Positions 14,273 to 63,800 of a DNA stretch of 64,000 bases are shown here, piece after piece. The stretch spans positions 1,025,948 to 1,089,947 of the forward strand of contig CBDBUR010000002.1 in NCBI GenBank assembly GCA_965212115.1, read 5' to 3'. This stretch comes from Alphaproteobacteria bacterium (GTDB lineage Bacteria > Pseudomonadota > Alphaproteobacteria > JAPOUT01 > G958296285). Both the position numbers and the translations under genes were made by a program. The notes below the pieces were generated by a model. It saw nothing but the letters and a program-made list of their open reading frames with translations. It was not told the DNA's origin and searched no databases. How positions within the stretch are numbered: the stretch's first letter is position 1; every line of letters begins with the position of its first letter.

Positions 14273-15563
<1,291 letters not shown>

Positions 15564-15580
15564 GCTCATCACATGAGGCT

Positions 15581-15868
15581 TTACGCCTTTTCTCCGGTGA
15601 AGCTGGAATTGCCCATCGGGGTTTTGATCTCGCCGGTGACATTATCGCCGTCAACATTGACCTCGATTGTCGCTTGAAGATCGCGCCCCATGACCTTGAG
15701 CGTCACCGGCGCGCTGACTTTATTGCCGTCGACGCTCCCGCCTGAGATCGCGACGTCGCCCTGCGGCGAATTCAACGAGCCATTGCCGCTATCATCGAGT
15801 GTCAAAATCGGGGTTTGTTTCCCCATCGGTGTGTTGACAGTTAACTGCCATTTTCCTGCAACAGACAT
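15581..15868 (-). CDS. Small conserved hypothetical protein (95 aa) with an internal duplicated 'TPMG' motif
   Basis: A strong SD (AAGGAGGA) sits 6 nt upstream of its ATG. Codon usage matches the neighbours. The sequence 'GKWQLTVNTPMGKQ ... GEIKTPMGNSSFTGEKA' suggests a duplicated beta-rich unit. There is no signal peptide. Confidence 0.55.
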   Translation of the reverse strand: MSVAGKWQLTVNTPMGKQTPILTLDDSGNGSLNSPQGDVAISGGSVDGNKVSAPVTLKVMGRDLQATIEVNVDGDNVTGEIKTPMGNSSFTGEKA

Positions 15869-15968
15869 ATTGTCCTCCTTCTTAGTTTATTAAGAAATGC
15901 ATACTAACATGAAATAATATGAAATAGTAGTGTATGAATAAGGCAGACATCGTCAGGGGAAGGATTTT

Positions 15969-17129: not shown

Positions 17130-18016
17130 TGGCTGTATTGGTTGATCAAAACACGCGCGTGATCTGTCAAGGCCTGACCGGCGCGCAGGGGACATTCCAC
17201 ACTGAGCAGGCGATCGCCTACGGCACAAATATGGTTGGCGGGGTGACGCCCGGCAAAGGCGGCGGCGAGCATGTCGGCCTGCCGATCTTTGACAATGTCG
17301 CCGAAGCGCGCGCGGCAACGCAAGCTAATGCAAGTGTGATCTATGTGCCGCCGCCTTTCGCTGCCGATGCGATCTTGGAGGCGATCGACGCCGAGATCGA
17401 ACTCGTCGTTTGTGTGACTGAAGGCATCCCGGTGATGGATATGGTGCGGGTCAAAGCGGTGCTTCAAGGCAGTGCGACGACATTGATCGGCCCGAATTGT
17501 CCCGGCATCATTACGCCGGGCGCGTGCAAGATTGGGATCATGCCGGGACATATACATAAGAAAGGCGCTGTCGGGATTGTGTCGCGCTCGGGCACGCTGA
17601 CCTATGAGGCCGTCGGCCAGACCACAGCGCAAGGTCTTGGGCAGAGCACCTGTATCGGCATTGGCGGCGATCCGGTGCGCGGCGCTGGGTTCATCGATTG
17701 CCTTGAGATGTTTCTCGCTGATGAGGAGACGCAGGGCATCGTCATGATCGGTGAGATCGGCGGCGCAGATGAAGAGGCGGCGGCTGAGTTTTTGAAGCGC
17801 GCGCGCCGCCGCAAGCCAGCGGCGGGCTTTATTGCCGGGCTGACAGCACCGCCAGGACGGCGCATGGGTCATGCGGGGGCGATTGTTTCTGGGGGTTCGG
17901 GCGGCGCTCAGGGCAAAATCGAGGCGATGAAGTCGGCGGGCATCACGATTGCGCGCTCGCCCGCCCATATCGGCGAAGCCATCGCTGAGGCGATCAAGGG
18001 GGTGCATAAAAATTGA
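17129..18016 (+). CDS. sucD: Succinyl-CoA ligase alpha subunit
   Basis: 295 aa. It has the phosphohistidine loop '[10 protein letters not shown]' and the 'SRSGTLTYE' CoA-binding motif. Confidence 0.95.
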
Positions 18017-36149: not shown

Positions 36150-36737
36150 ATGGAGAATGATATGTCTCAGCAAAGCGCGGATTTTGGCTCTTTTGAACAG
36201 AGCACACAGGAAGATTGGGCGATCATCAATCGCGAGTCGAAGAGATTTCAAGCGGGTTTAGCACGGCGCGTGATTGACCATCTGAAATTATTGGGCGGCG
36301 ATTATGGCGGTTTTCCGGTCGACCGACTTGAGCATTCGCTGCAGACCGCAACGCGCGCGCATCAGGATGGCCGCGATGAAGAATATGTCGTTTGCGCGCT
36401 GCTGCATGATATTGGCGACACGCTTGGCTGTTATAATCATCCTGATATTGCGGCGGCGATTCTTCAGCCTTTTGTCAGCGAGGAGAATCATTGGCTTGTT
36501 GCCAAGCACGGCATTTTTCAGGGTTATTATTTTTTTCATCATCTCGGGCTCGACCGCGATATGCGCGAGCAGTTTCGCGGCCATCAATGGTTTGAGGCCA
36601 CCGCGACGTTTTGCGAAAAATATGACCAGCCTGCTTTTGACAAGAGTTTCACCTCGATGCCGCTCGACGCCTTTGTGCCGATGGTCGAGCGCGTGTTTGA
36701 GCAGCCGCAGCGGAGCATCTATCGCCGCGCAAAATAG
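36150..36737 (+). CDS. HD-domain metal-dependent phosphohydrolase/oxygenase-family protein
   Basis: 195 aa with an H...HD metal-binding pattern ('LEHSLQTA...ALLHDIGDTLG') and a further His cluster ('HHLGLD'). Its length and motif spacing recall the short HD proteins of the PhnZ/MIOX-like subgroup, but I make no firm assignment. Confidence 0.6.
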   Translation: MENDMSQQSADFGSFEQSTQEDWAIINRESKRFQAGLARRVIDHLKLLGGDYGGFPVDRLEHSLQTATRAHQDGRDEEYVVCALLHDIGDTLGCYNHPDIAAAILQPFVSEENHWLVAKHGIFQGYYFFHHLGLDRDMREQFRGHQWFEATATFCEKYDQPAFDKSFTSMPLDAFVPMVERVFEQPQRSIYRRAK

Positions 36738-37174: not shown

Positions 37175-37668
37175 TTGTTTGCAGCTTTGCGCCTGTTGTC
37201 GCGACGCGGCCACATTTGCTCATTTTAGGCTCGATGCCCGGCGAAGAATCGCTTAAGCAGAGCCGCTATTATGCTCATCCGCGCAATGCGTTTTGGCCGA
37301 TCATGGCGCGGCTCGCCGGTTTTGCGCCGGAGCTTGATTATCCAAAACGGCTTCGAGCTTTAGGTCGCGCGCGCATCGCACTTTGGGATGTGTTGCAACA
37401 TTGTGAGCGCGTCGGCTCACTCGATCAGAACATTAAAAACGAGACGCCCAACGACATCGCCGATTTTTTGGAGCGTCATCGATCGATTGACGCGGTGTTT
37501 TTGAATGGCGGCAGAGCGGCGGCGAGTTTTCGACGTCATATTTTTGATCATCTGCCGCGCCGCTTGTTGGTTTGTGATTTGCCCTCGACGAGTCCGGCTC
37601 ATGCGCGCCTCAGCAGGGAAGATAAGTTCCGCATTTGGCGCAAGGCATGGAATAAAGCTCATAAATAA
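37165..37668 (+). CDS. UDG-superfamily DNA glycosylase (hypoxanthine/deoxyinosine-DNA glycosylase-like)
   Basis: 167 aa with 'LLILGSMPGEESL...YYAHPRNAFW' near the N-terminus and 'LPSTSPA' near the C-terminus. This pattern resembles UDG family 6 (hypoxanthine/deoxyinosine glycosylase). Confidence 0.55.
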   Translation: MGVVVCSFAPVVATRPHLLILGSMPGEESLKQSRYYAHPRNAFWPIMARLAGFAPELDYPKRLRALGRARIALWDVLQHCERVGSLDQNIKNETPNDIADFLERHRSIDAVFLNGGRAAASFRRHIFDHLPRRLLVCDLPSTSPAHARLSREDKFRIWRKAWNKAHK

Positions 37669-37671
37669 GGT

Positions 37672-38472
37672 TTAGCGCCCGGTAAATTTTGCCGGACGTT
37701 TTTCGATGAAAGACTTGACGCCTTCGGAGAAATCCTCTGATGTTTGTGCGAGCGCAAAGCCATCCATATCGGCGCGGCTCGCTAGAGGTGCGAGCGCAAG
37801 TGCTGCGGCATTGATATCCTGCTTGGTCATGCGGACAGAGTTGGGCGGCAGCGAGGCCGCGCGCGCCGCGATGTCGAGCGCGCGGGCGAGGGTCTTTCCG
37901 GCGGGGGTGATTTCGTCGATCAATCCGTAATGATGGGCTTGGTCGGCGTTCCATTTTTCACACAAAGTGATGAGCTTTTTTGCTTTGGCCGGCCCGACCA
38001 AAGCGACGATGCGCGGGATTGATCCCCAGCTCATATTCATGCCGCGTTCGACTTCGGGGATATAGAATTTCGCCTGCGCGCTTGCGATGCGCAGATCGCA
38101 CGCCGCCGCGAGCGCCACGCCGCCGCCGACCGTCCAGCCTTCGATGGCGGCGATTGTCAACATATCGAGTCTTTCCCAAGCGGCGCATAATCTTGGGCCT
38201 AGTTTCAAAGCTTGGCGTCGCGCTGCGAGGCCGTGCGCTCTTTGCTCGCTGCCCTGCGCTTCCTTGAGATCAGCGCCGAGCGTGAACACATCGGCGCGGC
38301 CTGTGAGGACGATCGCCGCGAGGGCGGGGTCATCTTCGAGTGTTATGGCGGCTTCCATGAGCTCTTTCATCAAGGGGCGTGAGAGGGCGTTGGCCGTGTT
38401 GCCGCGGTCGAAGCTGACGATCGCCACGCGGCCTTGATATTGATCTAGCCGTTTGATCGCAACAAAGCTCAT
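37672..38472 (-). CDS. Enoyl-CoA hydratase/isomerase (crotonase fold)
   Basis: 266 aa. Oxyanion-hole segments 'AIVLTGRADVFTLGADL' and 'IAAIEGWTVGGGVALAAACD' are present. Confidence 0.8.
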   Translation of the reverse strand: MSFVAIKRLDQYQGRVAIVSFDRGNTANALSRPLMKELMEAAITLEDDPALAAIVLTGRADVFTLGADLKEAQGSEQRAHGLAARRQALKLGPRLCAAWERLDMLTIAAIEGWTVGGGVALAAACDLRIASAQAKFYIPEVERGMNMSWGSIPRIVALVGPAKAKKLITLCEKWNADQAHHYGLIDEITPAGKTLARALDIAARAASLPPNSVRMTKQDINAAALALAPLASRADMDGFALAQTSEDFSEGVKSFIEKRPAKFTGR

Positions 38473-38486
38473 AAGAACATTGCGCT

Positions 38487-40010
38487 TTATTGCGCGGCGA
38501 CTTTGTGGCCGATTGCGACGCGATCGCTATCGACTTCATCGCGCGCACGGCAGGTGAATTCGTTAAAGTTGGGGCGGCGAGTTTTCCACCAATAGTAGAA
38601 AGTGTGGTTGGCCCAATTATTTGTGACTTTGCCGTCGGCGGTTTTATACCAGCTTGTGCAGCCGGTCGCGAAGACAGAGTTAGCGTTATCGGCTTGCACT
38701 TTTTTATTGGATGTTTTCTGCACATCGGCCTTGACATCGATATAGAGAATATCGTCTTTGCGGATTTTCTCGACGCATTGGGTGATGTAATTGGCTTGAC
38801 ATTCGATCATGAAGATAATCGAATTATGTCCGAGGTTGGTGTTGGGGCCATAGAGCATGAAGAAGTTGGGGAAGCCGCTCACGGTGATTCCGTGATGCGC
38901 GAAGGCGCCATTGGCCCAAATATCTTTTAAAGCGCGATTAGCGACGCCGGTCATTTTCATCGGCCCGAGAAAGTGGGTTGTATCAAAGCCTGTGCTATAG
39001 ATCAGGGCGTCGAGTTCGACGTCGCGGCCATCCTGCGTTTGGACGCTTTTTTCTGAAACTTGCGCAATCGGCGAGGTGATGATTTCGACATTATCCTTCC
39101 CGACGGTCGGCCACCAATCATTGGCGAACAGGATGCGCTTGCAGCCGGGTTCATAATCGGGGGTTAATTTTTGGCGTTTTTGCGGATCTTGGACATGGCA
39201 TTCCATTTCCTTATTGGCCATCTCTTTGAGTTTTTCGCCCTGTTTGTGGAAGGCGATCCATAAGAGTTCGCCCTGCCAGTAGATTTTCCAGCGCTGGAAG
39301 TTCATCGCCCAGGGAGCGATGCGATAGAGGAATTTTTCGATGCCCAGAAAATTGCGCTGAGGCCGTTCGACCACCCAGCTCGCTGAACGTTGGAAAATGC
39401 GGATATTGCCGCCCTCGCCGATCTGTTTGGCGATCTCCGGCACGAATTGGATCGCGCTGGCGCCATTGCCGATCACGCCGACCTGTTTGCCTTTGAGATC
39501 AACATTATGATCCCATTGCGCGCTATGCCATGAAGGACCTTTGAACAATCTCTGCCCTTGAATGTCGGGCCAGCGCGCGTGATGAAGCTGTCCGGACCCG
39601 GCGATAAATATGTTGGCTGTTGTTTTGCGTTCACCGCTGAATGTGAGTTCCCAAAAACCGCGGGCTTCACTGAAGTGAGCGTCGGTGAGCTCATGGCCAA
39701 ACTTGATATGGCGTCGGAGATCATATTTGTCGGCGACATGATCGAGATAGGTTTTGATCTCATCGGCGGCGACGAATTTTTTTGTCCAGCTGGGCAGCAT
39801 TTCAAACGAATATTGATACATATGCATAGGCACATCGCATGAGCAGCCAGGATAGGTGTTTTCGCGCCATGTGCCGCCGATGTCGTCGGTTTTTTCGTAG
39901 ATCGTGATATCGTCGAATCCGGCGCGTTTGAGCTTGATCGCCATGCACAGACCCGCGACGCCCGCGCCGAGAATGGCAATCTTGAGAGGGTTATCTGTCG
40001 CTGATTTCAT
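38487..40010 (-). CDS. Type I Baeyer-Villiger monooxygenase (FAD/NADPH-dependent)
   Basis: FAD Rossmann 'GAGVAGL', NADPH Rossmann 'GVIGNGASAIQ' and the BVMO fingerprint FxGxxxHxxxW[P/D] at 'FKGPSWHSAQWD'. The likely start is an internal Met ('MKSATDNPLKIAIL'); the track ORF extends to 40046. Confidence 0.8.
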   Translation of the reverse strand: MKSATDNPLKIAILGAGVAGLCMAIKLKRAGFDDITIYEKTDDIGGTWRENTYPGCSCDVPMHMYQYSFEMLPSWTKKFVAADEIKTYLDHVADKYDLRRHIKFGHELTDAHFSEARGFWELTFSGERKTTANIFIAGSGQLHHARWPDIQGQRLFKGPSWHSAQWDHNVDLKGKQVGVIGNGASAIQFVPEIAKQIGEGGNIRIFQRSASWVVERPQRNFLGIEKFLYRIAPWAMNFQRWKIYWQGELLWIAFHKQGEKLKEMANKEMECHVQDPQKRQKLTPDYEPGCKRILFANDWWPTVGKDNVEIITSPIAQVSEKSVQTQDGRDVELDALIYSTGFDTTHFLGPMKMTGVANRALKDIWANGAFAHHGITVSGFPNFFMLYGPNTNLGHNSIIFMIECQANYITQCVEKIRKDDILYIDVKADVQKTSNKKVQADNANSVFATGCTSWYKTADGKVTNNWANHTFYYWWKTRRPNFNEFTCRARDEVDSDRVAIGHKVAAQ

Positions 40011-40104
40011 AATGAGCCATTTTACCCGATTATTTCTTTGCATCATAGATTTTGTGGGATTTTATAGAGCTTTGGAATGGTCTATAATTAGGGTTTGTTG
40101 ATCC

Positions 40105-41268
40105 ATGGGGGGCTTGATGAGCACAGATTTTCCAGAAATTCGCGAGTCGATCCAGCGTTTATGCCTGAAATTTACCGGCAATTATTGGCGGCGGCTTGAT
40201 CGTGAGCGCGCTTATCCGAAGGATTTTGTCGATGCGCTGACGCGAGAGGGTTTTTTGAGTGTTTTGATCCCCGAAAGCTATGGTGGCGCGGGGCTGGGTG
40301 TTGCGGCGGCGGCGGCGATTTTGGAGGAGATCCACCACGCCGGATGTAATGGCGCGGCGTGTCATGCGCAGATGTATGTGATGGGGACTTTGCTGCGTCA
40401 TGGCTCGGCGGCGCAGAAGGAGGCCTATTTGCCGCAGATTGCGTCGGGTGCTTTGCGGCTGCAGGCTTTTGGCGTCACCGAGCCGAACAGCGGCACGGAT
40501 ACAACGCGCATCGAGACTTTCGCGCGGCGCGACGGCGGCCATTATATCGTCAGCGGCCAGAAGATTTGGATCTCGCGCGCGGAGTATTCTGATCTGATGG
40601 TGCTGCTTGTGCGCACGACGCCGCGCGCGGCGTCGTCGAAGTCGAGCGACGGCATGAGCGTTTTGCTTGTTGATATCAATAAGGCGCGGGGTCATGGTTT
40701 GACGATCAAGCCGGTGCGCACGATGATCAATCATGCGACCACCGAGCTTTTTTTTGACGAGCTCAAAGTGCCGGTGGAGAATCGGATTGGTGAAGAGGGA
40801 CAGGGCTTTCGTTATATTTTGGACGGCATGAATGCCGAGCGCATTCTGATTGCGAGCGAATGTATTGGCGACGGCAAGTTTTTTATTGATCGCGCTTCGG
40901 CCTATGCGAAGGAGCGCTCGGTTTTTGGCCGCGCGATTGGAGAGAATCAAGGTGTGCAATTTCCATTGGCGCGCTCTTATGTTCAGCTTTCGGCAGCGCG
41001 CCTGATGGTCGCGGAGGCGGCGAAATTGTTTGACGACAATCTTCCGTGTGGCGCGCAGGCCAATATGGCGAAGATGCTTGCCTCGGAGGCGTCGTGGGCG
41101 GCAGCGGATATGTGTTTGCAAATTCACGGCGGGTTTGGCTTCGCCGAAGAATATGACATTGAGCGCAAGTTTCGTGAGACGCGGCTTTATCAAATTGCGC
41201 CGATCTCGACCAATTTAATTTTATCTCATGTGGCGACTCATATTTTGGGTCTGCCGAAATCTTTTTGA
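40105..41268 (+). CDS. Acyl-CoA dehydrogenase
   Basis: 387 aa with the ACAD N-terminal, middle and C-terminal domains and a catalytic-base region ('IHGGFGFAEEYDIERKFRETRLYQI'). Confidence 0.85.
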   Translation: MGGLMSTDFPEIRESIQRLCLKFTGNYWRRLDRERAYPKDFVDALTREGFLSVLIPESYGGAGLGVAAAAAILEEIHHAGCNGAACHAQMYVMGTLLRHGSAAQKEAYLPQIASGALRLQAFGVTEPNSGTDTTRIETFARRDGGHYIVSGQKIWISRAEYSDLMVLLVRTTPRAASSKSSDGMSVLLVDINKARGHGLTIKPVRTMINHATTELFFDELKVPVENRIGEEGQGFRYILDGMNAERILIASECIGDGKFFIDRASAYAKERSVFGRAIGENQGVQFPLARSYVQLSAARLMVAEAAKLFDDNLPCGAQANMAKMLASEASWAAADMCLQIHGGFGFAEEYDIERKFRETRLYQIAPISTNLILSHVATHILGLPKSF

Positions 41269-42119
41269 CCGTGTTAGAAGATCTGCAAAATTGGGTGGGG
41301 CGCACACAGACCCAAAGTGATCGCTGTGATCGCGCGCGCATCGATAGGCTCGCCGCCCTGATTGATGACGAGCCGGTCTGGCGCGCGGGGGTTTTGCCTT
41401 ATTTGGCGCATTGGATTCACTTTTTGCCGATCGCGCGACAGGCGGCATTAGGTCCTGACGGCCACGCCAAGCGCGGCGGCTTTATCCCGCCGGTGGCTTT
41501 GCCGCGTCGCATGTGGGCAGGATCGGACGTGATTTTTCACGAAGATATCCGATTAAATCAGACGATCACGAAGCGCTCGGAGATTTTAAGCGTTGAGCCG
41601 AAAACAAGCCGCACAAGCCACAGAGGCGAAGAACTTATCTTTGTCAAGATCAGGCATGAGATGACGGGTGCGCAAAATGGGCGCATTGAGGAAGATCAGC
41701 ATATCGTCTATCGCGCAGCGCCTTCGAGCAAGGCCGCAAATGAGTCCGCGCCGCCGCGGCATAAAAAAGATCAAGAGATAGAATTTAGCCGCGCGGTCAA
41801 TTTTGATCCGGTTCTGCTTTTTCGCTTTTCGGCGCTGATGTTCAACGCACATCGGATTCACTATGATCGTGACTATGCGCGCCAAGAGGGTTATCCCGGT
41901 CTTGTTGTGCACGGGCCTTTGGTGGCGATGTGGCTGTTGATTCATTTTTTGCGCCACCATCCGAATATAAATATCCGGCGGTTTAGTTTTCGCGCGCGGC
42001 GGCCTTTATTTGATATATCCTCGCCCGCGCTTTTATGCAGCGCGCCGGATAATGAATTATGGGCGCAGGACAAAGGCGGCAATGTCGTGATGACCGCAAG
42101 TGTGGAGATGGCGCCATGA
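41265..42119 (+). CDS. MaoC-like (hotdog-fold) acyl-CoA hydratase/dehydratase
   Basis: 284 aa. The C-terminal hotdog carries the MaoC hydratase motif ('RIHYDRDYARQEGYPGLVVHGPL'). The N-terminal half is MaoC_dehydrat_N-like. The ATG overlaps the ACAD stop (ATGA). Confidence 0.7.
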   Translation: MTVLEDLQNWVGRTQTQSDRCDRARIDRLAALIDDEPVWRAGVLPYLAHWIHFLPIARQAALGPDGHAKRGGFIPPVALPRRMWAGSDVIFHEDIRLNQTITKRSEILSVEPKTSRTSHRGEELIFVKIRHEMTGAQNGRIEEDQHIVYRAAPSSKAANESAPPRHKKDQEIEFSRAVNFDPVLLFRFSALMFNAHRIHYDRDYARQEGYPGLVVHGPLVAMWLLIHFLRHHPNINIRRFSFRARRPLFDISSPALLCSAPDNELWAQDKGGNVVMTASVEMAP

Positions 42120-42937
42120 GTTATTTGTTATGGCGCTCTTTATTGTTTGTTCCGGCTGATCGGGTTGATCTGCTTGAAAAAGCGCCGCGCTGTGATCCGG
42201 ATGCGGTCATTCTTGATCTGGAGGATGGCGTGGCGGCGGCGCATAAGCAGGCGGCGCTTGATGTGCTCGCGGAGAAAATTTCTTTTTTGCGCGCGCAGGA
42301 CATTCCGGCTCTGGTGCGCATTGATCGGGCTTTCGCGCAAAAAGATTTTGATAAAATCGCCGCCGCGCAGCCGATGGCGCTGATATTGCCGAAAATCAAA
42401 CAGGTCGCAGAGATTTCTCGGCTCAGCGCGCAGATCGGCTCATCAATGGATTTGGTGGTGTTGGTTGAACATCCGCGCCTGCTGGACAATCTTTTTGAGC
42501 TTGCCGCTATGCGCTCTGTGGTCGCTCTGGCTTTGGGCAGCGAAGACTTTTCCCTCGCCATGAACGTTATGAACGCGCCTTCTGCCGCGCTTGATTTGCC
42601 GTGCAAGATGATCGCGCTGGCCGCGCGCGCTTATGAGATTGCCGGTTTTGGCCTGCCGATATCCGTCGGGGCGTTTGGCGATCTAGCCGCCTACCGGCGC
42701 GCCGCCGAAGCTGCGCGGACTTTTGGACTTTCGGGCGCGTTATGTATTCATCCGGCGCAAGTGGAGATCATCAACCAAGTGTTTCGCCCGACCGCTGCCG
42801 ATGTTGCTTTGGCTCATCAGATCATCAAAGCATGGGATGAGCGCGGCGGTGATGTTGCGGTCATTGCCGTCAATGGGCGGATGGTGGATCAGCCTGTTGT
42901 CGCACGGGCACGCAAAATCATCAAAAGCGAAAATTAA
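42116..42937 (+). CDS. CitE/HpcH-family acyl-CoA lyase (citryl/malyl/citramalyl-CoA lyase-like)
   Basis: The start is set at the ATG overlapping the upstream stop ('MSYLLWRSLLFVPADR...'). 'RSLLFVPADR', 'ILDLEDGVA' and a C-terminal 'CIHPAQVE' are hallmarks of the CitE beta-subunit fold. Confidence 0.75.
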   Translation: MSYLLWRSLLFVPADRVDLLEKAPRCDPDAVILDLEDGVAAAHKQAALDVLAEKISFLRAQDIPALVRIDRAFAQKDFDKIAAAQPMALILPKIKQVAEISRLSAQIGSSMDLVVLVEHPRLLDNLFELAAMRSVVALALGSEDFSLAMNVMNAPSAALDLPCKMIALAARAYEIAGFGLPISVGAFGDLAAYRRAAEAARTFGLSGALCIHPAQVEIINQVFRPTAADVALAHQIIKAWDERGGDVAVIAVNGRMVDQPVVARARKIIKSEN

Positions 42938-43965
42938 TTGGCAAACAAAATTTCGCAGCCCGTATCTTTGAGCAGCCGGTCAATGAAGATGCGGTCTTGC
43001 TGACTCAAAGCCTGATAGGCCTCGCGCAGCCAGTTAAGGCATTTGCCTTGATAGGGAAACGGCTTTTGCACCCATGTCTGGCCGTCAATCTCGGCGCGGA
43101 CTTCCTCATCGCTGTTGGCGAGGGCCTGCGCATTGGCGAGCATCACTGGCGCATAGAGCCTTCCGGCTTCGCCAAGAATGTCGCGCAGAGTGCCGCCGAG
43201 CGCGTCGCGGGAGAGCCAGTCTTGCGGCTGCGGCTCCACGCCCGACAGATCATCGACGACATCCACCCAAGCATAGATGCGCGGCGCGCGCGCCAAAACC
43301 AGCTTCATCGGCGTCGGATCAAATTTGGCCAACTGCGTCAATTGGCCATAGGCGGCAAAATCGCAGGCCGCAGGCCGCGCGCCTAATAAAAAACTATGAT
43401 GCTCCAAATGGCGCTTCATCACATCAAGGTAGCGCTCAAAGCCGCTTTCAATGATCGGCGCGGTGGTCTCGTTGGAGCCGACGACATAAAGCCGCGAGAT
43501 CTGCCGCTCGGCAATGAGCGCGCTCATGGGTTTGAGCTGCTCTTCGCTGCGCGGCGCAACCGACCAGCGCGGCAAAATCGCAGCGCCGTTGGCGATGTCG
43601 TCTTTGTAATGCCAGCGATAATGAAACATCGCTTTGGTCAGCCATTCATCGGCATAATCTTCAAGCAGATCATTGATAAAGGCGAGCGCCGGATCATCGG
43701 GCGTGATTTTGCGCTGCGGGAAGGCGGCCTCAAACCGGCGGATCAGAGGCGTGGAATCGACGCAGGCTTGGAGTTGGCCATTATTGTCGGGTAGATAAAA
43801 CACTGGCAGGAGTCTGACTTTCGGCTCGGGCAGACCCAGATCATTATCCTGCGCGCCGATGAGCAGTTGATAGGCGATGCGCCGGTAGCGCAGCACCGCG
43901 AGCATTTTGCGCGTATAGGGCGAGCCGGGCGCCCCCATCAGCAGAACGGGTTCGGGGATATTCAT
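42934..43965 (-). CDS. Glutathione S-transferase-family protein (thioredoxin-like N-domain plus extended C-domain)
   Basis: 343 aa. The N-terminus 'LLMGAPGSPYTRKMLAVLRYRRIAYQL' fits the GST_N pattern with the catalytic Ser-Pro. Longer than canonical GSTs. Confidence 0.5.
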   Translation of the reverse strand: MNIPEPVLLMGAPGSPYTRKMLAVLRYRRIAYQLLIGAQDNDLGLPEPKVRLLPVFYLPDNNGQLQACVDSTPLIRRFEAAFPQRKITPDDPALAFINDLLEDYADEWLTKAMFHYRWHYKDDIANGAAILPRWSVAPRSEEQLKPMSALIAERQISRLYVVGSNETTAPIIESGFERYLDVMKRHLEHHSFLLGARPAACDFAAYGQLTQLAKFDPTPMKLVLARAPRIYAWVDVVDDLSGVEPQPQDWLSRDALGGTLRDILGEAGRLYAPVMLANAQALANSDEEVRAEIDGQTWVQKPFPYQGKCLNWLREAYQALSQQDRIFIDRLLKDTGCEILFAN

Positions 43966-43978
43966 CTACAGCAATCCT

Positions 43979-45109
43979 CTACAAAAGATCATCAACGATG
44001 ATGTCTTTACTATCGGCGGGCAGGGAGATCAAAGTGCCGTCGCGTCCGAGTGTGATGTCGCCGTCGAAGGCGTCATCGGTGCCGCGCAGGAAGACGTCTT
44101 CGAGTCCGCTGAGCGGCAAAGGCGGCACGATATGATAATAGAGCAGGTGGCCGACATTGGCCTTCTGCGCGATTTGCGCCGCTTCGACCGGCGTGGTGTG
44201 GTAGTCGAGAATATCGGTCGTAATTTTGGCGAGTCTTTTGTTTCCGGCTTTTTGCGCCGCGCGGGTGATAATCTTGACGAGTTTTCTTGACAAAGCTTCA
44301 TGGACGAGCAGATCGACGTTTTGCGCGAAGGTTTCCATTTCGGGGATTTCTTTTGTATCGCCGCTGATGACGACCGAGCGGTTTTTATATTCGAATTTAT
44401 ATCCGACTGCTGGTTCGATCGGATCATGTGCGACGCGGAACACGGAAATTTTGACGCCCTCCTTGTTCCATATTGTGAGCATTTGTCGCGGCGGTGGTAG
44501 GGGGAAGGTCCGCGCGATCATGCCCGCGCCAGAAGGCGGGGCAATGTCGATGCCGTGATGCCCTGCGCGATAGCCGACATCAGCGCGATAGGCGAGATTA
44601 AGACCTTCGACGATCAGTTCGACACCTTTGGGCCCTAAAACGGGCAGGGGCGTTTTATGACCGGCATTGATCCAGCGCAATAGGGCCATTTCGCCGAGTC
44701 CGTCGATATGATCGGAGTGGAAATGGGTGAGCAGAAGGGCGTCAATGCGCCCGGGTGTCCAGCGCATGCGCGTGAGGTTGCGCGCGCCATTTGTGCCAGC
44801 GTCGATGATGAACATTTGCTTGCCCGCAATCACAGCGACACAAGGCCCTGACCTTTTATCATCGGGCAGAGGGCTGCCGGCACCGCAAAGGGCTATATGT
44901 AGTCCGTCATCGAGGCTGTCGATCGCATCGCTTGCGGTCATATTGCTGGCGATGACGCGCTCCATAATAAAGATCGCGATCGAGCCGCGAAAAAGAAAAA
45001 AGCCGCCAACTAGAGCTAAAATAACGACTAAAATTCCAGAAGCTGCTTTGGTAGCTGTTTTGGTAGCTGTTGTCATTTTCCTCTCCTTTTTATATTTATA
45101 TATAGCCAC
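43979..45109 (-). CDS. Membrane-anchored MBL-fold metallo-hydrolase
   Basis: 376 aa with an N-terminal TM helix ('ILVVILALVGGFFLF') and the metallo-beta-lactamase motif 'LLTHFHSDHIDGLGE'. Downstream His/Asp ligands are present. Confidence 0.7.
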   Translation of the reverse strand: MAIYKYKKERKMTTATKTATKAASGILVVILALVGGFFLFRGSIAIFIMERVIASNMTASDAIDSLDDGLHIALCGAGSPLPDDKRSGPCVAVIAGKQMFIIDAGTNGARNLTRMRWTPGRIDALLLTHFHSDHIDGLGEMALLRWINAGHKTPLPVLGPKGVELIVEGLNLAYRADVGYRAGHHGIDIAPPSGAGMIARTFPLPPPRQMLTIWNKEGVKISVFRVAHDPIEPAVGYKFEYKNRSVVISGDTKEIPEMETFAQNVDLLVHEALSRKLVKIITRAAQKAGNKRLAKITTDILDYHTTPVEAAQIAQKANVGHLLYYHIVPPLPLSGLEDVFLRGTDDAFDGDITLGRDGTLISLPADSKDIIVDDLL

Positions 45110-45114: not shown

Positions 45115-45897
45115 TTATAGCGCAGCGCCAACATGGCCGCCATCAACAATGATGGTTGCGCCGGTCATATAGGCACCGGCGCGTGATGCGAGCAGCAAGA
45201 GCGGGCCGGTGAGTTCATCGAGCGCGCCGATGCGGTTCATCGGGATTCGCTGGATCATTTTAATGCCGCTCTCGCTGTCGAGGAAGTCGCTGCTGATGGC
45301 GGTGCGGAAATAGCCGGGCGCGAGCGCATTAACGCGAATATTATGCCGCGCCAATTCGATTGCGATTGTGCGGGTAAATTGTTTGACCCCGGCCTTAGCA
45401 GCGGCGTAGGAGGCGAGCATGAGGCCGGGACGCTCGGCGAGAATCGACGAAATGTTAATGATCGCACCGCCGCTTTTGGCTCTGATCATTCTGTTGGAGG
45501 CTTCTTTAGAGACCCGCCACACGGCGCTGAGATTAGTTTCGATGACATCGTGCCATTCCTCTTCGCAGAGAAGCTGCGCGAAATTGTTGCGCGCCAGGCC
45601 GGCATTATTGATAATGATCGTCGGCATGGAGAGGGTCTGCTCGGCTTCGTCGAAGGCGCTGCGGATGCTTCGGGCGTTTTTGACGTCGGTCTGGATGGCG
45701 ATGGCTTTTTGGTCGGTTGCGGCGCTGATTTTTTCAGCCTGATCTCTGATCTGGTCTAAGCGGCGAGCAGCAAGCACGACATCAGCGCCCGCCTGCGCGA
45801 GCACATGGGCGAAATGTGCGCCGAGCCCGCTCGATGCACCAGTAATGAAGGCCGTTTGCCCCTTCAGATCAAACAAATCGCTAATCGCATTATTCAT
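45115..45897 (-). CDS. Short-chain dehydrogenase/reductase (SDR)
   Basis: 260 aa with 'TGASSGLGAHFA' cofactor binding, 'NNAG' and a catalytic Tyr...Lys ('YAAAKAG'). Confidence 0.85.
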   Translation of the reverse strand: MNNAISDLFDLKGQTAFITGASSGLGAHFAHVLAQAGADVVLAARRLDQIRDQAEKISAATDQKAIAIQTDVKNARSIRSAFDEAEQTLSMPTIIINNAGLARNNFAQLLCEEEWHDVIETNLSAVWRVSKEASNRMIRAKSGGAIINISSILAERPGLMLASYAAAKAGVKQFTRTIAIELARHNIRVNALAPGYFRTAISSDFLDSESGIKMIQRIPMNRIGALDELTGPLLLLASRAGAYMTGATIIVDGGHVGAAL

Positions 45898-45936
45898 GGA
45901 TACCCCCTATTTTGCGGTTTCATGCTAAAAGAGATT

Positions 45937-47997
45937 ATGGCCAAGATAAACCCTATCTTTTGCATTTTGCCTCTTTTGGTTTTGTTGATATCAGGGGCGC
46001 AAGCGGGGTCGTGGCGTGAGAGCGACAATCATCGGTTTCGGGTTTTTTTGGGCTCCTATGACGAAGAACGGCTTTATGGAGGGTTTGCGTTTGAGTTGAA
46101 GGGCAATTGGAAGACCTATTGGAAAAATGCCGGTGATGCGGGTCTTCCGCTCAAACTGCGTAAAGCGAGCTCAGATGTTATGATTCACTGGCCTTCGCCG
46201 CGGCGGTTTTTTTATCAAGATGGCCTTTATTCCTATGTCTATGACAAGCAGGTGGTGATCCCTTTTTCTTTCCCTCATCCCAATTCCGGTAAAGGTGTGA
46301 AGCTGAGAATAATCGGGGAATATTCGGTCTGTGATGTTTTATGCGTTCCCTATACTTTTGACGAGACGCTTGAGATTCCGGTTGCGGCGCGGCGCGCTGA
46401 CGAGGATCAATCGATTCGACACGCGCTTGGCGAGATGCCAAAGAACGTCGCCCAAGATGATGCGCTTGATGTTGTTCTCGCGGCGGATCGCAACATTATC
46501 AATGTGTCATTTCGCGCGCAGCAGCTTGGCGCGGTGCGCGATGTGATGATCGATGGCGGTGATCTCTCTTTGCGCGCGCCAAAAATCATCGCTGATGGGG
46601 ATAAAGTTTCGGCTTTGTTTGATTATCAGGCTTTTTCAAAGAAACAAACAAGATCGCCGCTAGAAAACATCACTCAAGAGATCAAAACGATTCTTGTGCA
46701 AACGGATCGCGGGACGTTTCAGATTTTTGGCGCCGCGCCGACGACGATAACGCCTGCCGCGCCTGAAATGATGTTGTGGTCGTTTATTTTGATTTTGGCA
46801 TCGGCGTTTTTGGGCGGTTTGATTCTCAATATCATGCCGTGCGTTTTGCCGGTGATATCTTTGAAGCTGGCGCAGATGACGCTGCCTGCGGCGTCATTGA
46901 GTCTGCGCGCGCAATTAGGGTGGACGGTTTTTGGCATTTTGCTGTCGTTTGTTTTGCTCGCGGCGATTGTTTATGTGCTGCAGCAGGCGGGCGAGATTGT
47001 CGGCTGGGGTTTTCATTTTCAGCAGCCGGTTTTTGTTTTGTTGATGATGAGCGTCTTGTTGTTTTTTGCATTTGCACAACTGGGATTTTTGCGCTTGGGA
47101 TTTGCGTCGAGTGTACAGGGCGGAATCAACCAATGGCTCGATCGATTTCAGCCGGATCGCCCTGCGTTTCATATTTTTTATGGCGGGGTGATCGCTTTGC
47201 TGGCGACTCCGTGCACGGCGCCTTTTTTAGGCAGCGCGGTGGGGTTTGCGCTGACGCAATCTTTTGCGGTGATTTTGCTGGTTTTTGTGTCGATTGGATT
47301 GGGTCTCGCGGTGCCGCTTTTGATTTTGTTGGCATGGCCAGGATGGGCAAATGACGGCAGCGGGCACGGCTTACGGGCATCGCGCTGGACGGTTTATGTA
47401 AGGAATTTTGCGGCGATTTTGCTCTATGGCTCGGCGCTGTGGCTGCTGTGGGTTTCGTCGGGACAATTAGGTCTTGGCTGGGCGCTCGGTTTTTTTGTGA
47501 CGCTTCACGCGGCGTTGCTGATCTTGGCGCTCGCCGACAGGCGGGCCGCGCGTTATGCGGCGGCGGGGATAATTTTTGCGGTGGTTGTTTCACCGCTGGC
47601 TTTGCCGTCGAGTCCGATAGTAGCGCGTGTGGTCGAAGATGACGGATTGGTCTGGCATATTTTCAGCGAAGCGGAGTTCAAGACGCAAAGACAAAAAGGC
47701 AAGATTGTATTTATTGATATTTCAGCCGATTGGTGTTTGAGCTGCCAATATAACAAAGCAAATGTCTTGCTCGATGACGAAGTGCGGACAGCTTTGGGCA
47801 GCGCGGATGTCTATTTGATGTCGGGTGATTTAACGAAGGTCAATGATAAGATCACGAGTTTCATTCGCAAAGAGGGGCGCGGCGGGATCCCGTTCAACGG
47901 ATTTTATGGCCGCGCGCGCAAAGAAATTCTTAGCGAGATTTTAAGCAAGAAAGCTTTGCTGAAGAGTCTGGAAGCGATCAGGGCGAATAATTATTAA
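45937..47997 (+). CDS. DsbD/ScsB-type transmembrane thiol:disulfide reductase
   Basis: About 687 aa. Signal peptide, an N-terminal periplasmic domain ('KGNWKTYWKNAGDAGL'), a polytopic core with the conserved Cys/Pro segment ('MPCVLPVISLKL') and a C-terminal thioredoxin domain with 'DWCLSCQ' (CxxC). The start is set at the SD-preceded ATG; the track ORF starts at 45805. Confidence 0.75.
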   Translation: MAKINPIFCILPLLVLLISGAQAGSWRESDNHRFRVFLGSYDEERLYGGFAFELKGNWKTYWKNAGDAGLPLKLRKASSDVMIHWPSPRRFFYQDGLYSYVYDKQVVIPFSFPHPNSGKGVKLRIIGEYSVCDVLCVPYTFDETLEIPVAARRADEDQSIRHALGEMPKNVAQDDALDVVLAADRNIINVSFRAQQLGAVRDVMIDGGDLSLRAPKIIADGDKVSALFDYQAFSKKQTRSPLENITQEIKTILVQTDRGTFQIFGAAPTTITPAAPEMMLWSFILILASAFLGGLILNIMPCVLPVISLKLAQMTLPAASLSLRAQLGWTVFGILLSFVLLAAIVYVLQQAGEIVGWGFHFQQPVFVLLMMSVLLFFAFAQLGFLRLGFASSVQGGINQWLDRFQPDRPAFHIFYGGVIALLATPCTAPFLGSAVGFALTQSFAVILLVFVSIGLGLAVPLLILLAWPGWANDGSGHGLRASRWTVYVRNFAAILLYGSALWLLWVSSGQLGLGWALGFFVTLHAALLILALADRRAARYAAAGIIFAVVVSPLALPSSPIVARVVEDDGLVWHIFSEAEFKTQRQKGKIVFIDISADWCLSCQYNKANVLLDDEVRTALGSADVYLMSGDLTKVNDKITSFIRKEGRGGIPFNGFYGRARKEILSEILSKKALLKSLEAIRANNY

Positions 47998-57800: not shown

Positions 57801-60800
57801 CCTCCGCGACAGGCGAGATCACGCTTGCGGGCACGACCAACAACCTCACCATTGAGGCGCGCGGCAACTTGATGCTCGATACGCCAGCGCTTACGGTTGG
57901 AGGCAGACTTTTCTTAACAGCAGGTCGGGGTGGCGATAGTTCAGGCGTCATTTCCTTTGCAAATAGCCTAAACGCCGGCGCCAAACCGTCTATAACAGCT
58001 ACCGCCACCACAAGCCGCGCAACGCCAGCCATCACGCTGGAGCAGGATGAAGAGTATTTTGCCGCAGATGATGCGGGTGATGCGACGAATAGAGGTCCGG
58101 CGATATTTAACACAACACCTGAAGGTATTTTTGCCGGCCCCACGGTTCCCGCGGACACCGACCGGTTATGGATTAATATCGATACGAGCACCTTTAGCCG
58201 GACATTCGGCTCCGGTGTGGGTTATGCGATTTTGAACGCCGACCTCACGGGAGCATCGGGAACAGGAGAGATCACCGCTCGAGTGAGGCTCACATTTGAC
58301 GCTGGCACGGGGGTTCTTTCTTTTGCCGCCGACGTCACGGACACGGCGATCAGGCTTGCCGCGCCGATAATCTCGATCACAGCGGGGAGCTTTGATCTCG
58401 GCAGCAAAACTTTGATCATCACGACCGAAGGCGGCGATCTTGAGCTCACTGGCGACAGCACAAACGGCTTTTCATTCATGAGCACTGCCACCGCGCCTGC
58501 CACTGGCCATGTGCTTGTCATCGATACCGGCGCTCTCATTGTCACCGGCACACCGGCCACGCCGTTGTTTGATGTGCGCAGCCTGTCTGTCACGCAAACC
58601 GCCGCCTTTGCCGACGCGTCGCCTTTTAGATTCACCAATGTCACGGGGTTGACCCTCATGACAGCGGCAGATCAAACGATCGCCAGCTGGATGATCGCAA
58701 GCGGTCGGGATTTGTCGGTTGCCTCGACTAGCGGCGATGTCATCGTGGCTGCGGAGATCACGAGCGCGGCCATTGGCGCGGGCGACCTCACTTTGATTGC
58801 CCCCGAAAGCTCGTCTCAGGTTCAGATCAGCGCGTCTATTACAACCGGCGGCGATCTCATTGTGCGCGGCGGCGGCGGGGTCTTGTTTGATGACGATGAC
58901 AGCTTGGCATCCACCGCGCTGGTCTTGACCTTAACCGGCGCGTCGCTCATTTTTGGCGGCGACATCACAGCCGATGATGGCGTTGATATTGCTTTGATGG
59001 CGACAGGCGCAGGCAGCGCAGGCAATATCACCTTTGAGAGCGATGTTTCTTCGATCATGGTCAGCGGTGATGGCGTGGGCGGCACATTCACGGTGGACGC
59101 GAATGCAATTATCACCACCTTCAACGCCACGACGCTAGTTTCAGCAACTATTGATTTAACGCAGGCCGCGCCGTTTGTTACCAGGCTATTCATTTTTTCA
59201 ACCGCAATCGTCAATCAACTGACTTTGGCAACCACCACCACCGCCATCCAGCAGGTTAGAGCTTGGATGCACGATACTGCAGGCAATTGGGGCTTCGCCC
59301 TCACGGTTAGTGCAGGCGCGATCCGCGTGGGCGACCTCAACACCGGCACCAACGATCTTGTTTTGTCCGCCAACAGAATCAGAATTGAAGTCCTTGGAAG
59401 CTTAAGCAACCCGACCGAGCTATCCGGCAATAATGTTGTGCTCAGCGCGCCAGGCGGCATTGAAGCTGGGTCTTTAAGTCTCTCCGCCACCCCGGACGAC
59501 ATCCGCATCAGTTCGAGCGCCACCGTGTCCGGCACCAGCTTGCAAATCTCTGGAGATATTAATCTGGGCACCAACGCGAGTTCAACGCTTACTTTGTCGG
59601 GGATGTCGTTTGGCGGCGACGCCTCGAGTGCGCTCACCACCTCTGGGAGCGTCACTTTCAACCTGCGCAGCACCACAAGCGCGTTTGACGCCACCGCCCC
59701 CTATAATGTTGATGCCGTGGCTACCGCTTTGAACCTCATAGTCAATAATGACGCCGCAACGCCTCAGCCGCTCCAAAGCTGGATGACTGATTTTGCAACC
59801 GCCAACAAAACTCTGTCTCTGACATCGGCCTCTGGCACGATTGACATTGACGCAGATATTTCCATCAGCGGCAGCCTCACGATCAACGCGCACACGCTTG
59901 ATACATCTGACCGCGACCTGTCGATCAGCGCGGCTAATATCGATATAGAGATCACGACGGGCGAAGTCGTTTTGGGAGCTAACGATCTCACTGTTGCGGC
60001 CAGCGGCACTTTGCGGTTCGTCGTTACAGGCGGCTTGAGCGCCGTTGATGTCAGCGACGCCGTCACGGCCAACACGATCAGCTTGACCGCAGGCTCAGGC
60101 GCCATCGACGGCAGCGGCACATTGGAAGTCCAAACAATCGCCCTGATCCAAGAGAATACGTTTGTCGCCACCGCGCCGTTCACCTTTGATGCAGATGTAG
60201 CCGCGCTGGCTCTCACAGTCACGCGGTCATCGTCGGCGACGCAGCCGCTCCAGACTTGGATGGAGACTTCTGATCGCAGTCTCAGCCTCACCTTCACCAA
60301 CGGCATCATTGAGTTCAGGCGCGTCCTTGACTTTGGCACGGCAGGCGACCTCGCTTTGTCGGCGACGCAAATTCGCATTGGGAGTGTTCCCGCCACGCCA
60401 ATCACAGTGGTCGCCAATAATATCAGTCTCACTGCTACTAGAAATGATTCTGGCATTGAAGCCTTTGCGTCAAGTGGGAATTTTCTCAACGCTCGTTTCA
60501 ATATGACCATAACAGCGCAGAGGAATTTGATGCTCGTCGGCGATTTTACTGTCGCAAGAGGCACTAACAATGTCTTTACGCTGGAGGCAGGCGCAGGCGC
60601 AGGTGTTACTGATGGTGCCATCACCACGACAGGTTCTTCTGAGGTCGACACAACAAACTTGAGACTCGTCCAAGATGCGGCCTTTGCCGATAATTTATTC
60701 ACAATTACGGTTAATAATGGAGAGTACCGCGAGCCCTTATCCAGCACGCTTGAGCTGGACACCAAAGCAGCGCAGGTTATCCATGGCTGGATGCTTTTCC

Positions 60801-63800
60801 CCGGCATTAATCTGGATTTGACAAGCACTGCGGAAATTATCATCAGGCGCAACATCGATCTTGTCCGAAATCTAGCCGATGGCATTGGTGGGACAGATAA
60901 TCGGCGCAGCAATCTCGCTTTGAGCGGCACCGAGATTCAAATTGAACGCGATGCGAGTGCCGCGCGCTTCATAGAGGCCAACAATATCAGCCTTACGGCC
61001 AGCGCTGCGGCGGGCATCAGAATTGGGACTTTCTCAGGCGATACTTTCACGCCAGCGGTCGCAGCGGATGCTTTTGCTCTGGCTATCCGAGCTGACGGCA
61101 ATTTGACGCTGGCGACCCCCAGCCTCAATGTTGGGGGAGGCGCTCTGACGCTCGTGGCTGGCAACGATGTCGATCTTCTCAGCACCGTCAGCCCCAATGT
61201 TGACGCCGACATTGATTTTGGCACCCTGCCTGACATCACGGCGTCGTCGGTTGCGCTGCGCAAGGGCGGAGCCGTCTTTGGTTCGAGCCCGCCTGCGACG
61301 TTCCAAGATGCTGACGGCACGGCTCTGTCTGAGGGCATGATAACGGCTAGATATACCGGAGATGCCGCCGCGCAAACAGATGAAAACTGGTTCACCATCG
61401 CATTTATTTCGAATCCCTTTGTCATGACGCCGGGCGGCACTGACGATCTTGCGGTTTCCGGTGTCATTCAGCGCAGCGCCGCGATCACCATAGACATCGG
61501 CACAGGAACGCTCACTTTCAACGGCAGCGGCGGCATCATTTTGCAGGGGACGGCGATAGCGATCACAGCGGGCAGCATCGATCTTGAAGGCCGCGCCTTG
61601 ACGATCACCGCCACGGGCACATTGATGATCACCGCGAACATAGCCAATGCGCAAATGATTGAAGTTGTCGGCGCCACCACTTTGTCTTTCCTGGGCGCGA
61701 CGCGCACAATCACCGGCATGACCGGCGATATTGATGTTGTTCTCAATGTGAGCGCGATCACCCTTCCTGATGACGGCACTCTGACTGTTTCGTCGCAGGG
61801 CGGTTTGGAGATTGGCGGCGACATCACGATTGGCGGCGCCGGGGCGCTGACTTTGACAGCCGACTCAAATGACAATGCCACAGATGGAGCCATTACCAAT
61901 GGCGGCGGCGCGGGCACGCTTTCTGCGGCGAGCGTGACCCTCACGCATGATGTTGGCTTTGGCACTGGCTTGTTTGCTCTGCCCGCCGCGGTGACTTCGC
62001 TGGCTCTCACGGCCAATGGCAGCACCACGCAGTTCGTCCAAACGTGGATGTTGAATGACAGCGCCACTAGCTCTGCCGCCAACAATAGAGGCTTCACCTT
62101 CACGGCGACTAGCGCACAGATTTCGGTCGGGCTTGATATTGCCGCAGGCACCGCCGCTCTCGTTTTGAATGGCACCGATCTGGCTTTTGGCACTGATCGC
62201 TCTTTGTCTGGCAGCAACATTACGCTTAGCGGAGCAATGACCGCGACCAACTCACTCACCGTCGCCGCGAGCGGCAACTTAATGATTGGCGGCAATATAA
62301 CTCTTGCAGCCAACAGCGATGGCGATGCCACCACGCTGACCCTCAATGCGGGTGTTGGCGGCACAGGAACAGTCTCCGAAACGGTGTCGGGAAGCCCAAC
62401 CCTGACCGCAGGGACGGTCACTATCGATCATGATGGCGCTTTCCCCTTTGATCTGTTCGCTACTGCCTCTGCTGTCGGCATGTGGGATCTTGCATCATCA
62501 GGCAGCAACAGTTTCGCGATCTACAACTGGATGTTTGGGGTGGGAGAATCCTTGAAATTAAACATTCCAAACGGCCCGCTCACCATTGGCGTCTCTCGTA
62601 TCACGAACGTTGACGTTGGCTCCGCCGGGACCATTGATCTGAATGCTAGTGCTATTACAATCAATGATAACAGCCCAAGCACAACAGCAACAATCACATT
62701 ACGCGGTGGAACTATAACGTTGAGGAGCGGCGTCGGCTTATCCAACATTGCCTCAGGAAGCGAGAGCCTCGCCGTCGTCGCGCAAAACGTTTTGACGCTC
62801 GCTGCCTCCTTCATTGACTTGAGATCCGGCACCCTCTCGCTGACGGGGAGCACAATAGTCAACGACAGCGGCTCCGCTTTGGCGTTGACTGCGGCAATTG
62901 TCAATTTGACGCAAACCAGCACGACGGCCACCGCGGTGTTTGCCTCAGATATATTCACGCTGGCTGACGCCGTGAATGAGTTAAATATCACGCTTAGTGC
63001 GGCGTCCACGCAGTCCGAGACGGCGACGCAGATTCTCCATCCGTGGATGCTCCAGCAAGGCGGTTCGGATGATGCCGGCAGAGACGTAACACTCACTGCG
63101 ACCGACGCTGTCATTCAAGTGGCGCGCACTTTCACCATCAGCGATCTCAATTTGAGCGGCGCTTCAATCACGACCGATGCTACCGCGCGCACCGTGACTG
63201 CGGGAACGATCACGCTCGACGGGCCGGTTGAGCCGGGCAGCGCACTCACGCTCGCGGCGACAGGCACATCGAACGGCGCTCTGACACTAGGAAGCCGCAC
63301 GACAGCCATCACGAGCTCGAATGACCTGACGCTGTCAACCAATGGCACGATCTCTTTTGCCGCCAGCAGTCTGGAGATCGTCGGTGATAACATCTCGCTC
63401 AATGGAGAGATCCCCGTGACCACTTCCGGCGCGCTTGCTGCGGCGCGCGTCATCACGGGAACGGCCTCTAACCCCGCGCTCACCATCACAGCCCTGCATG
63501 ATGTTAGGATTAACATTCACATCAATATCGGCGGCGGCGCTTTGGAGATCACCGCTGGCAATCAGGCAGGCGATGGCACGGGCAGCACAAGTGAAACTGG
63601 TCTCATTGAGTTCCGGAACGGAGATACCGTCACGACTGTTACAAACACGCCTCTGCCGCCAGCCATCAATATCACGATGGGCAGCGTTGTGTTGGTGCAG
63701 GATGGCGCACTTTTCGTCAATGATCGTCCTGCGCTGTTCTTTGATTCTAATTTTGATCCTGCGAACGCGATAGAAAGCACCGGCAATCCTGATCAAATCA

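Follow-up and report, generated by a model that had tools for sequence, protein, structure and literature searches.

The 64,000-nucleotide stretch of alphaproteobacterial DNA analyzed here (positions 1,025,948 to 1,089,947 of contig CBDBUR010000002.1; hereafter the window) contains three genes, arranged head to tail on the (+) strand, that probably form one operon and constitute the coenzyme A (CoA)-ester core, Mcd-Ich-Ccl, of a Pseudomonas-type pathway for branched C5-dicarboxylates (methylsuccinate, itaconate, mesaconate). An earlier reading made from the letters alone (the sequence-only reading) had described an oxidation, hydration and lyase triad, and both the open reading frames (ORFs) and their domains agree with that description. 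The ORFs lie at 40105-41268, at 41265 or 41271 to 42119, and at 42059 or 42116 to 42937, the second and third having two candidate starts each; with the starts we prefer, the genes are as follows.

40105-41268, + strand: mcd, FAD acyl-CoA dehydrogenase, predicted (RS)-methylsuccinyl-C4-CoA dehydrogenase (387 amino acids; three dehydrogenase domains, identity to cluster dehydrogenases)
41271-42119, + strand: ich/meh, PaIch-type hot-dog hydratase, predicted mesaconyl-C4-CoA/itaconyl-CoA hydratase (282 amino acids; match to 8KHG/8HUC)
42116-42937, + strand: ccl, CitE-like Mg-dependent acyl-CoA lyase, predicted (S)-citramalyl-CoA lyase (273 amino acids; domains, motifs, adjacency to Ich)

In the route that we propose, the acyl-CoA dehydrogenase (ACAD), Mcd, would oxidize (R)- or (S)-methylsuccinyl-C4-CoA to mesaconyl-C4-CoA (3-methylfumaryl-CoA), its electrons presumably passing to the electron-transfer flavoprotein. 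Ich/Meh would hydrate mesaconyl-C4-CoA to (S)-citramalyl-CoA and could also isomerize and hydrate itaconyl-CoA to the same product, which Ccl would cleave to acetyl-CoA and pyruvate in a Mg-dependent reaction. We infer these substrates and activities from characterized homologues.

Homology, catalytic motifs, gene order and the conservation of that order are all observed directly. The hydratase is a clear homologue of PaIch, the itaconyl-CoA/mesaconyl-C4-CoA hydratase of Pseudomonas aeruginosa (PDB 8KHG/8HUC), which it matches over residues 9-269 with an E value of 8e-50 and 38.7% pairwise identity, and the same substrates are predicted for it. Pfam sees a hot-dog protein with only a weak match to FAS1_DH_region, of the MaoC N-terminal type. 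The family comprises at least 7,997 database proteins at E <= 1e-10, many of them named 3-methylfumaryl-CoA (mesaconyl-C4-CoA) hydratase by JGI, and an N-x-H-R-I-H-Y-D motif is invariant across its alignment; the best match in the species-representative genome collection is 48% identical to the window protein. The Meh enzyme of the 3-hydroxypropionate bi-cycle of Chloroflexus aurantiacus belongs to the same family and catalyzes the same reaction, from mesaconyl-C4-CoA to (S)-citramalyl-CoA. Its context is autotrophic glyoxylate assimilation with a trifunctional malyl-CoA-type lyase and no ACAD step, and the direction differs from the one predicted for the window.

The ACAD contains all three acyl-CoA dehydrogenase Pfam domains and has no close structural relative in the PDB, where its best match scores 203 bits. 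Its affinities are instead visible among genomic clusters. It is 86-89% identical to the ACADs of two close relatives (loci L001 and L002), 72-79% identical to alphaproteobacterial ACADs that adjoin genes for Ich or for CaiB-type transferases, 67% identical to the ACAD of a Mesorhizobium plasmid cluster, and 61-65% identical, over the full length, to ACADs of the betaproteobacterial ich-mcd-ict-msi-ccl clusters of Burkholderia and Cupriavidus; paralogous ACADs in the same cluster loci reach 27% identity at most. Judged by these identities, it belongs to the orthologous group of the itaconate/methylsuccinate-cluster ACADs, of the PA0879 and C. necator Q0K3E4 type. The sequence-only reading had called the ACAD of Pseudomonas itaconate operons an enzyme of unknown role, a statement that the literature has overtaken: PA0879 of P. 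aeruginosa and the C. necator enzyme have been shown biochemically to be (RS)-methylsuccinyl-C4-CoA dehydrogenases with mesaconyl-C4-CoA as product (Gonner 2025, PMC12290011), and by genetic evidence growth on methylsuccinate depends on PA0879 (de Witt 2023, PMC9875883).

The enzyme types of the triad would also suit a module for leucine and 3-hydroxy-3-methylglutaryl-CoA (HMG-CoA) like that of M. tuberculosis Rv2498c-Rv2500c, in which an isovaleryl-CoA dehydrogenase and a methylglutaconyl-CoA hydratase would feed an HMG-CoA/citramalyl-CoA lyase, and Rv2498c is a distant relative of the window lyase (69 bits, 30% identity). The sequence-only reading had drawn this actinobacterial parallel and listed methylglutaconate among the possible substrates. 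We abandon both, and consider such a module very improbable: the hydratase is of the PaIch type, the ACAD scores 156 bits against isovaleryl-CoA dehydrogenase structures, below many other ACADs and against 203 bits for its best match, and no methylcrotonyl-CoA carboxylase was found in the window.

The lyase has the Pfam domains HpcH_HpaI and C-C_Bond_Lyase. Among PDB entries it matches 1SGJ of D. radiodurans at 106 bits, PaCcl, the P. aeruginosa lyase (8KHL/9NZB), at 95, RipC at 78, Rv2498c at 69 and CLYBL at 61; the corresponding identities are 33% to PaCcl, 32% to 1SGJ, 30% to Rv2498c and 28.5% to RipC, with 24% to E. coli CitE. All NCBIfam scores fall far under the equivalog cut-offs, namely 118.6 against 443.4 for citE (TIGR01588), 102 against 375 for RipC_Ccl (NF038242) and 36 against 500 for Mcl (NF041626). 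Two malyl-CoA lyase structures, 5UGR (64 bits, residues 168-270) and 4L9Y (47 bits, residues 183-270), align over the C-terminal ~100 residues only. By these scores and alignments the protein is neither a true CitE nor a malyl-CoA lyase, the two placements that the sequence-only reading had named as fatal to its proposal. In a contrary reading the protein would be the beta subunit of a genuine citrate lyase, or else would serve as malyl-/beta-methylmalyl-CoA lyase in the 3-hydroxypropionate bi-cycle or the ethylmalonyl-CoA pathway, with the ACAD acting as a C1-specific methylsuccinyl-CoA dehydrogenase. This reading draws on weak family-level similarity of the kind just listed, in TIGR01588 and among the malyl-CoA lyases of the PDB, and is barely credible. 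Neither citD nor citF was found in the window, and the ethylmalonyl-pathway-type dehydrogenase 6ES9 (551 amino acids) ranks only about 28th among the structural matches of the ACAD, at 158 bits; the window ACAD has no N-terminal extension comparable to that of 6ES9. The leucine/HMG-CoA, citrate-lyase and ethylmalonyl-CoA readings were thus rejected on the type of the hydratase, on scores and on the failure to find a carboxylase, citD or citF in the window.

Cleavage of (S)-citramalyl-CoA is the activity predicted for the lyase, whose catalytic motifs (DLED, an Arg, the Glu and Asp metal ligands, IHP and MVD) are all intact. Its nearest homologues, 41-47% identical, lie immediately 3′ of Ich homologues. 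A lyase phylogeny had been proposed in the sequence-only reading. In a neighbor-joining tree whose references were PaCcl, RipC, Rv2498c, 1SGJ and E. coli CitE, the window protein falls, with 57% bootstrap support, among alphaproteobacterial "CoA ester lyases" and apart from PaCcl, and the deep nodes (5-15%) are unresolved. Members of the window group have G-S-E-D at the second metal ligand and PaCcl-type proteins G-S-(L/V/I)-D. Because Ich lies directly upstream of the lyase gene in all five group members examined (from Parvibaculaceae, Sphingobium, Paraburkholderia, Azospirillum and an uncultured alphaproteobacterium), a functional tie of this group to the hydratase product is well supported. 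At residue 95, the Glu of a P-K-x-E motif is replaced by Lys (PKIK) in the window, in L001 and in one other protein; L002 and nearly all aligned CitE-like proteins have Glu. We considered whether this Lys marks a lost metal ligand and rejected the idea, since the ligands map to the Glu of LVEHP and the Asp of GSED, both of which are present. The mapping was made by residue count from the Rv2498c ligands E112 and D138.

The sequence-only reading placed ATGA overlaps at both gene junctions, and this is correct for the second only. There, the hydratase and lyase genes share ATGA at 42116-42119, with GGAG at 42103-42106, 5′ of the start; the overlap is kept in both close relatives, and the start at ATG 42116 agrees with a 100% identical database protein of 273 amino acids (P0121). 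At the first junction, 41265-41268 reads TTGA. The hydratase ORF gives 284 amino acids from TTG 41265, which is in frame, and 282 from GTG 41271. In L001 and L002 the junction reads TTTTTGA-NN-ATG, and because this ATG aligns with the window GTG at 41271 and the database hydratase (P0001) has 282 amino acids, the start is most likely GTG 41271, 2 nt past the ACAD stop (TGA CC GTG) and without overlap. Alignment of the relatives, the database proteins and N-terminal conservation thus led us to drop the longest-ORF starts, TTG 41265 and ATG 42059, in favor of GTG 41271 and ATG 42116. A gap of 2 nt is still compact enough for coupled translation. Two further sites were recorded on the + strand.

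40061-40088, + strand: promoter-like site, TTTATA-16-TATAAT, 10/12 consensus positions, called by consensus match alone
42110-42137, + strand: hairpin across the ich stop and the ccl start (ATGA), 10-bp stem, predicted dG -21.9 kcal/mol, z -4.2

The first is the best promoter-consensus match within 37500-44200 and sits in the 58-bp gap between the ACAD gene and a divergent monooxygenase gene (see below). The hairpin covers the lyase start codon, and we considered it as a translational-coupling element; in L001 a G-to-A change weakens it, in L002 an insertion of 24 nt breaks it, and for want of conservation it was rejected in that role. It is probably fortuitous. At the 3′ end, the stop codon of the lyase gene and that of a convergent GST-like gene of 343 amino acids on the - strand share TTAA at 42934-42937 and, as they overlap, leave no space for a terminator between them.

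The order of the triad is conserved in the two close relatives, and distant lineages, too, combine such an ACAD with the hydratase and the lyase. We fetched 80 loci with Ich homologues from species-representative genomes and added the two close relatives, three loci of the nearest lyase homologues and annotated plasmids, all of which were probed by tblastn. Greedy calling of the longest ORFs had picked antisense shadow ORFs as neighbors in high-GC loci and was replaced by GC3-weighted calling and then by the tblastn probes. Partner genes were counted in the 52 loci that extend 5 kb or more to each side of Ich, an ACAD being counted at 45% or greater identity to the window ACAD. Such an ACAD (mostly 55-79% identical) lies within 10 kb of Ich in 34 of the 52 loci, a CitE-like lyase near Ich in 31, a CaiB-type transferase in 27 and an MmgE/PrpD protein (Msi) in 15; all four partners are found near Ich in 10. 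Mcd and Ccl occur with no CaiB-type transferase in five (the window, its two relatives, L051 and L026), and in L026, from Acidobacteriota, neither a CaiB-type nor a RipA-type transferase lies within 10 kb. In L051, from an uncultured alphaproteobacterium, positions 8786-12907 carry mcd-ich-ccl and, directly after ccl and overlapping it by 4 nt, an AcetylCoA_hyd_C gene (a RipA-like acetyl-CoA hydrolase/transferase); this locus resembles a cross between the Pseudomonas-type and the Yersinia-type itaconate cluster.

Comparison of the window triad to the clusters PA0878-PA0883 of P. aeruginosa and E6A55_22580-22600 of C. necator, which encode Ich, Mcd, Msi, Ict and Ccl (Sasikaran 2014, as cited in PMC12290011; Gonner 2025, PMC12290011; de Witt 2023, PMC9875883), shows the same hydratase family, the same orthologous group of ACADs, a CitE-like lyase and the same predicted route. 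This supports the sequence-only reading in its proposal of a branched or C5-dicarboxylyl-CoA module and of a parallel in Pseudomonas itaconate operons, a view also favored by the PaIch homology, the cluster-type ACAD and a lyase that is neither CitE nor Mcl. The window differs from these clusters in having no Ict, Msi, lactonase, transporter or LysR regulator and in its order, mcd-ich-ccl, the canonical betaproteobacterial order being ich-mcd-ict-msi-ccl; its lyase, at 33% identity to PaCcl, stands apart from it in the tree and has G-S-E-D in place of G-S-(L/V/I)-D. Alphaproteobacterial variants of the cluster keep the order ACAD ... Ich-lyase seen in the window. In pMESCI01 of Mesorhizobium ciceri a LysR gene flanks ACAD-oxidoreductase-CaiB-Ich-lyase-MmgE/PrpD. 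A Parvibaculaceae locus has ACAD-CaiB-Ich-lyase and L051 has ACAD-Ich-lyase-RipA-like transferase, both with lyases of the window group. The ACADs of these three clusters are 67-77% identical to that of the window, and each cluster has a CoA transferase of the CaiB or RipA type, whereas none was found with the triad in the window or its two relatives. The RipABC system of Yersinia pestis is convergent and shares the logic for itaconyl-CoA, a hydratase followed by a CitE-like lyase; the window lyase scores 102 bits against NF038242 (cut-off 375), the window has no RipA-like transferase, and an ACAD is missing from the Y. pestis-type cluster (PMC12290011).

These differences raise the question of how the acids would be activated. 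Searches for transferase and isomerase covered the window and 10 kb around the triad in L001 and L002: tblastn with beta- and alpha-type Ict probes gave no match to a CaiB-type (family III) CoA transferase in either the window or the flanks of the relatives, and no MmgE/PrpD isomerase was matched in the window, L001 or L002. The window yielded neither a RipA-type (AcetylCoA_hyd_C) transferase nor an acyl-CoA synthetase or carboxylase. Its remaining large ORFs encode aconitase, leuCDB, asd, mdh, sucCDAB-lpd, priA, the ATP synthase operon, proteases, DsbD and the like, and no further ORF is big enough for an overlooked ligase or carboxylase. The sequence-only reading had stated that the window holds no CoA transferase, ligase or carboxylase; this stands for the transferase, the acyl-CoA synthetase and the carboxylase and misses one pair of genes.

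15969-18016, + strand: sucCD, succinyl-CoA synthetase, candidate activator outside the operon (Pfam ATP-grasp_2/Ligase_CoA and CoA_binding/Ligase_CoA)

This pair, ~22 kb upstream of the triad, is the sole activation candidate in the window. SucCD is able to activate itaconate, and ict is missing from some clusters (PMC12290011); promiscuous activation of itaconate by SucCD is also reported in PMC9875883, where a P. putida ict deletion strain still grew slowly on itaconate. The free acids would be activated by SucCD or by a transferase encoded elsewhere in the genome. The MmgE/PrpD protein of the clusters is a methylsuccinate isomerase (PMC12290011), and because the characterized Mcd enzymes take both enantiomers, it would be relevant only alongside a stereoselective activating enzyme.

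A triad with no transferase beside it could instead have a housekeeping or detoxification role and not support growth on external acids. The same chemistry would then clear itaconyl-, mesaconyl- or methylsuccinyl-CoA that arises by accident, as when SucCD activates itaconate from the environment; the role proposed for human CLYBL offers an analogy. This would suit a locus for which ict, msi, a transporter and a regulator were found neither in the window nor in the 10 kb searched around the triad of each relative, and which is set among housekeeping genes (ATP synthase, tricarboxylic acid cycle, ribosomal proteins) in an apparently small genome, the contigs of the lineage measuring 1.1-1.9 Mb (1.6-1.9 Mb in the relatives). 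We consider it unlikely, since an operon that includes Mcd suggests that methylsuccinate is a genuine substrate, pathogen-type itaconate-detoxification clusters have no mcd (PMC12290011), and a transferase could sit elsewhere in the genome.

The divergent neighbors of the triad suggest a further alternative, in which the three enzymes act on another substituted acyl-CoA.

37672-38472, - strand: crotonase-family enoyl-CoA hydratase (ECH)
38487-40046, - strand: Baeyer-Villiger-type flavin monooxygenase (BVMO), divergent from the triad across a 58-bp gap

The acyl-CoA would perhaps come from the BVMO and the crotonase together with a nearby alpha/beta hydrolase, and the lyase clade would not be specific for citramalyl-CoA. 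In each of the lineage's three genomes ECH and BVMO adjoin the triad, the 58-bp divergent intergenic region being common to both, the window-type lyase clade has no characterized member, and in Paraburkholderia (L085) an Ich-Ccl pair of the same clade is joined to a different ACAD (<45% identity), a crotonase, a thiolase and a CoA transferase. We find this reading doubtful, because the ACAD is 61-79% identical to bona fide itaconate/methylsuccinate-cluster ACADs, which usually means the same substrate, and because BVMO and ECH accompany the triad in this lineage and in none of the other loci searched. A functional tie between these two genes and the triad was set aside on that restriction to one lineage. 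There is, in addition, a slim chance that the locus is more than a reduced version of the Pseudomonas pathway and embodies a new feeding route, either with SucCD as the sole, physiologically relevant activator of methylsuccinate and itaconate or with the BVMO/crotonase pair making an ester like methylsuccinyl- or mesaconyl-CoA from an unrecognized precursor.

Against the assignment of the triad as the core of a branched C5-dicarboxylate pathway, several points must be weighed. In the whole 64 kb, the operon has no companion transferase, isomerase, transporter or regulator. Growth of P. putida on methylsuccinate required Ict (PMC9875883), and deletion of sucCD in C. necator left residual itaconate conversion unchanged (PMC13491972); SucCD thus has a mixed record as a candidate activator. 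The lyase, only 33% identical to PaCcl, falls outside the PaCcl group in a clade that is weakly supported (57%) and has no characterized enzyme, and the orthology of the ACAD to PA0879 and Q0K3E4 is judged from syntenic-cluster ACADs of related genera. Finally, 10 of the 52 loci have none of the four partners near Ich, and the Ich family must therefore serve other pathways as well, as also noted in PMC12290011.

The pathway itself is already known, the form with no transferase or isomerase beside it is already acknowledged in the literature (PMC12290011 for ict), and the locus leaves understanding of the pathway unchanged. The gain is one of annotation, in that three proteins without names in the collections searched can now be named Mcd, Ich/Meh and Ccl, and the itaconate/methylsuccinate pathway is widened to a small-genome alphaproteobacterial lineage known from metagenome assemblies alone. 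This fits the view that methylsuccinate and itaconate are common environmental substrates (PMC12290011). Of more specialist interest are the second group of Ich-coupled CitE-like lyases and hybrid clusters such as that of L051.

The wider neighborhood is likewise shared with the close relatives, both of which conserve the sequence ECH and BVMO on one strand, the divergent ACAD, Ich and Ccl genes, and then convergent GST and MBL genes. Their ECH/BVMO arrangement is 80-81% identical to that of the window and is absent from all other Ich loci searched. Indels vary around this island, because the window has no counterpart of two genes of L001, the closest relative: a cytochrome P450 gene beside the alpha/beta hydrolase gene (2992-4257), missing at window position ~35100, and a fused restriction-modification gene of 939 amino acids between the MBL and SDR genes (13902-16721), missing at ~45100. 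A 195-amino acid ORF at 36150-36737 has no Pfam match, and neither do its counterparts of 190-191 amino acids in both relatives. Two - strand ORFs of 388 and 317 amino acids (59764-60930 and 61468-62421), also with no Pfam match, may represent shadow ORFs or genes that lack annotation. For the SDR gene (- strand, 45115-45897) and a DsbD-like gene (+ strand, 45805-47997), the longest ORFs overlap head to head by 93 nt (45805-45897), and one of the two probably starts further in. As to the lineage, the SucA protein of the window is 68-86% identical to a few metagenome proteins and ~61% identical to sequences from Parvibaculum, Chelatococcus and other Hyphomicrobiales-like sources.

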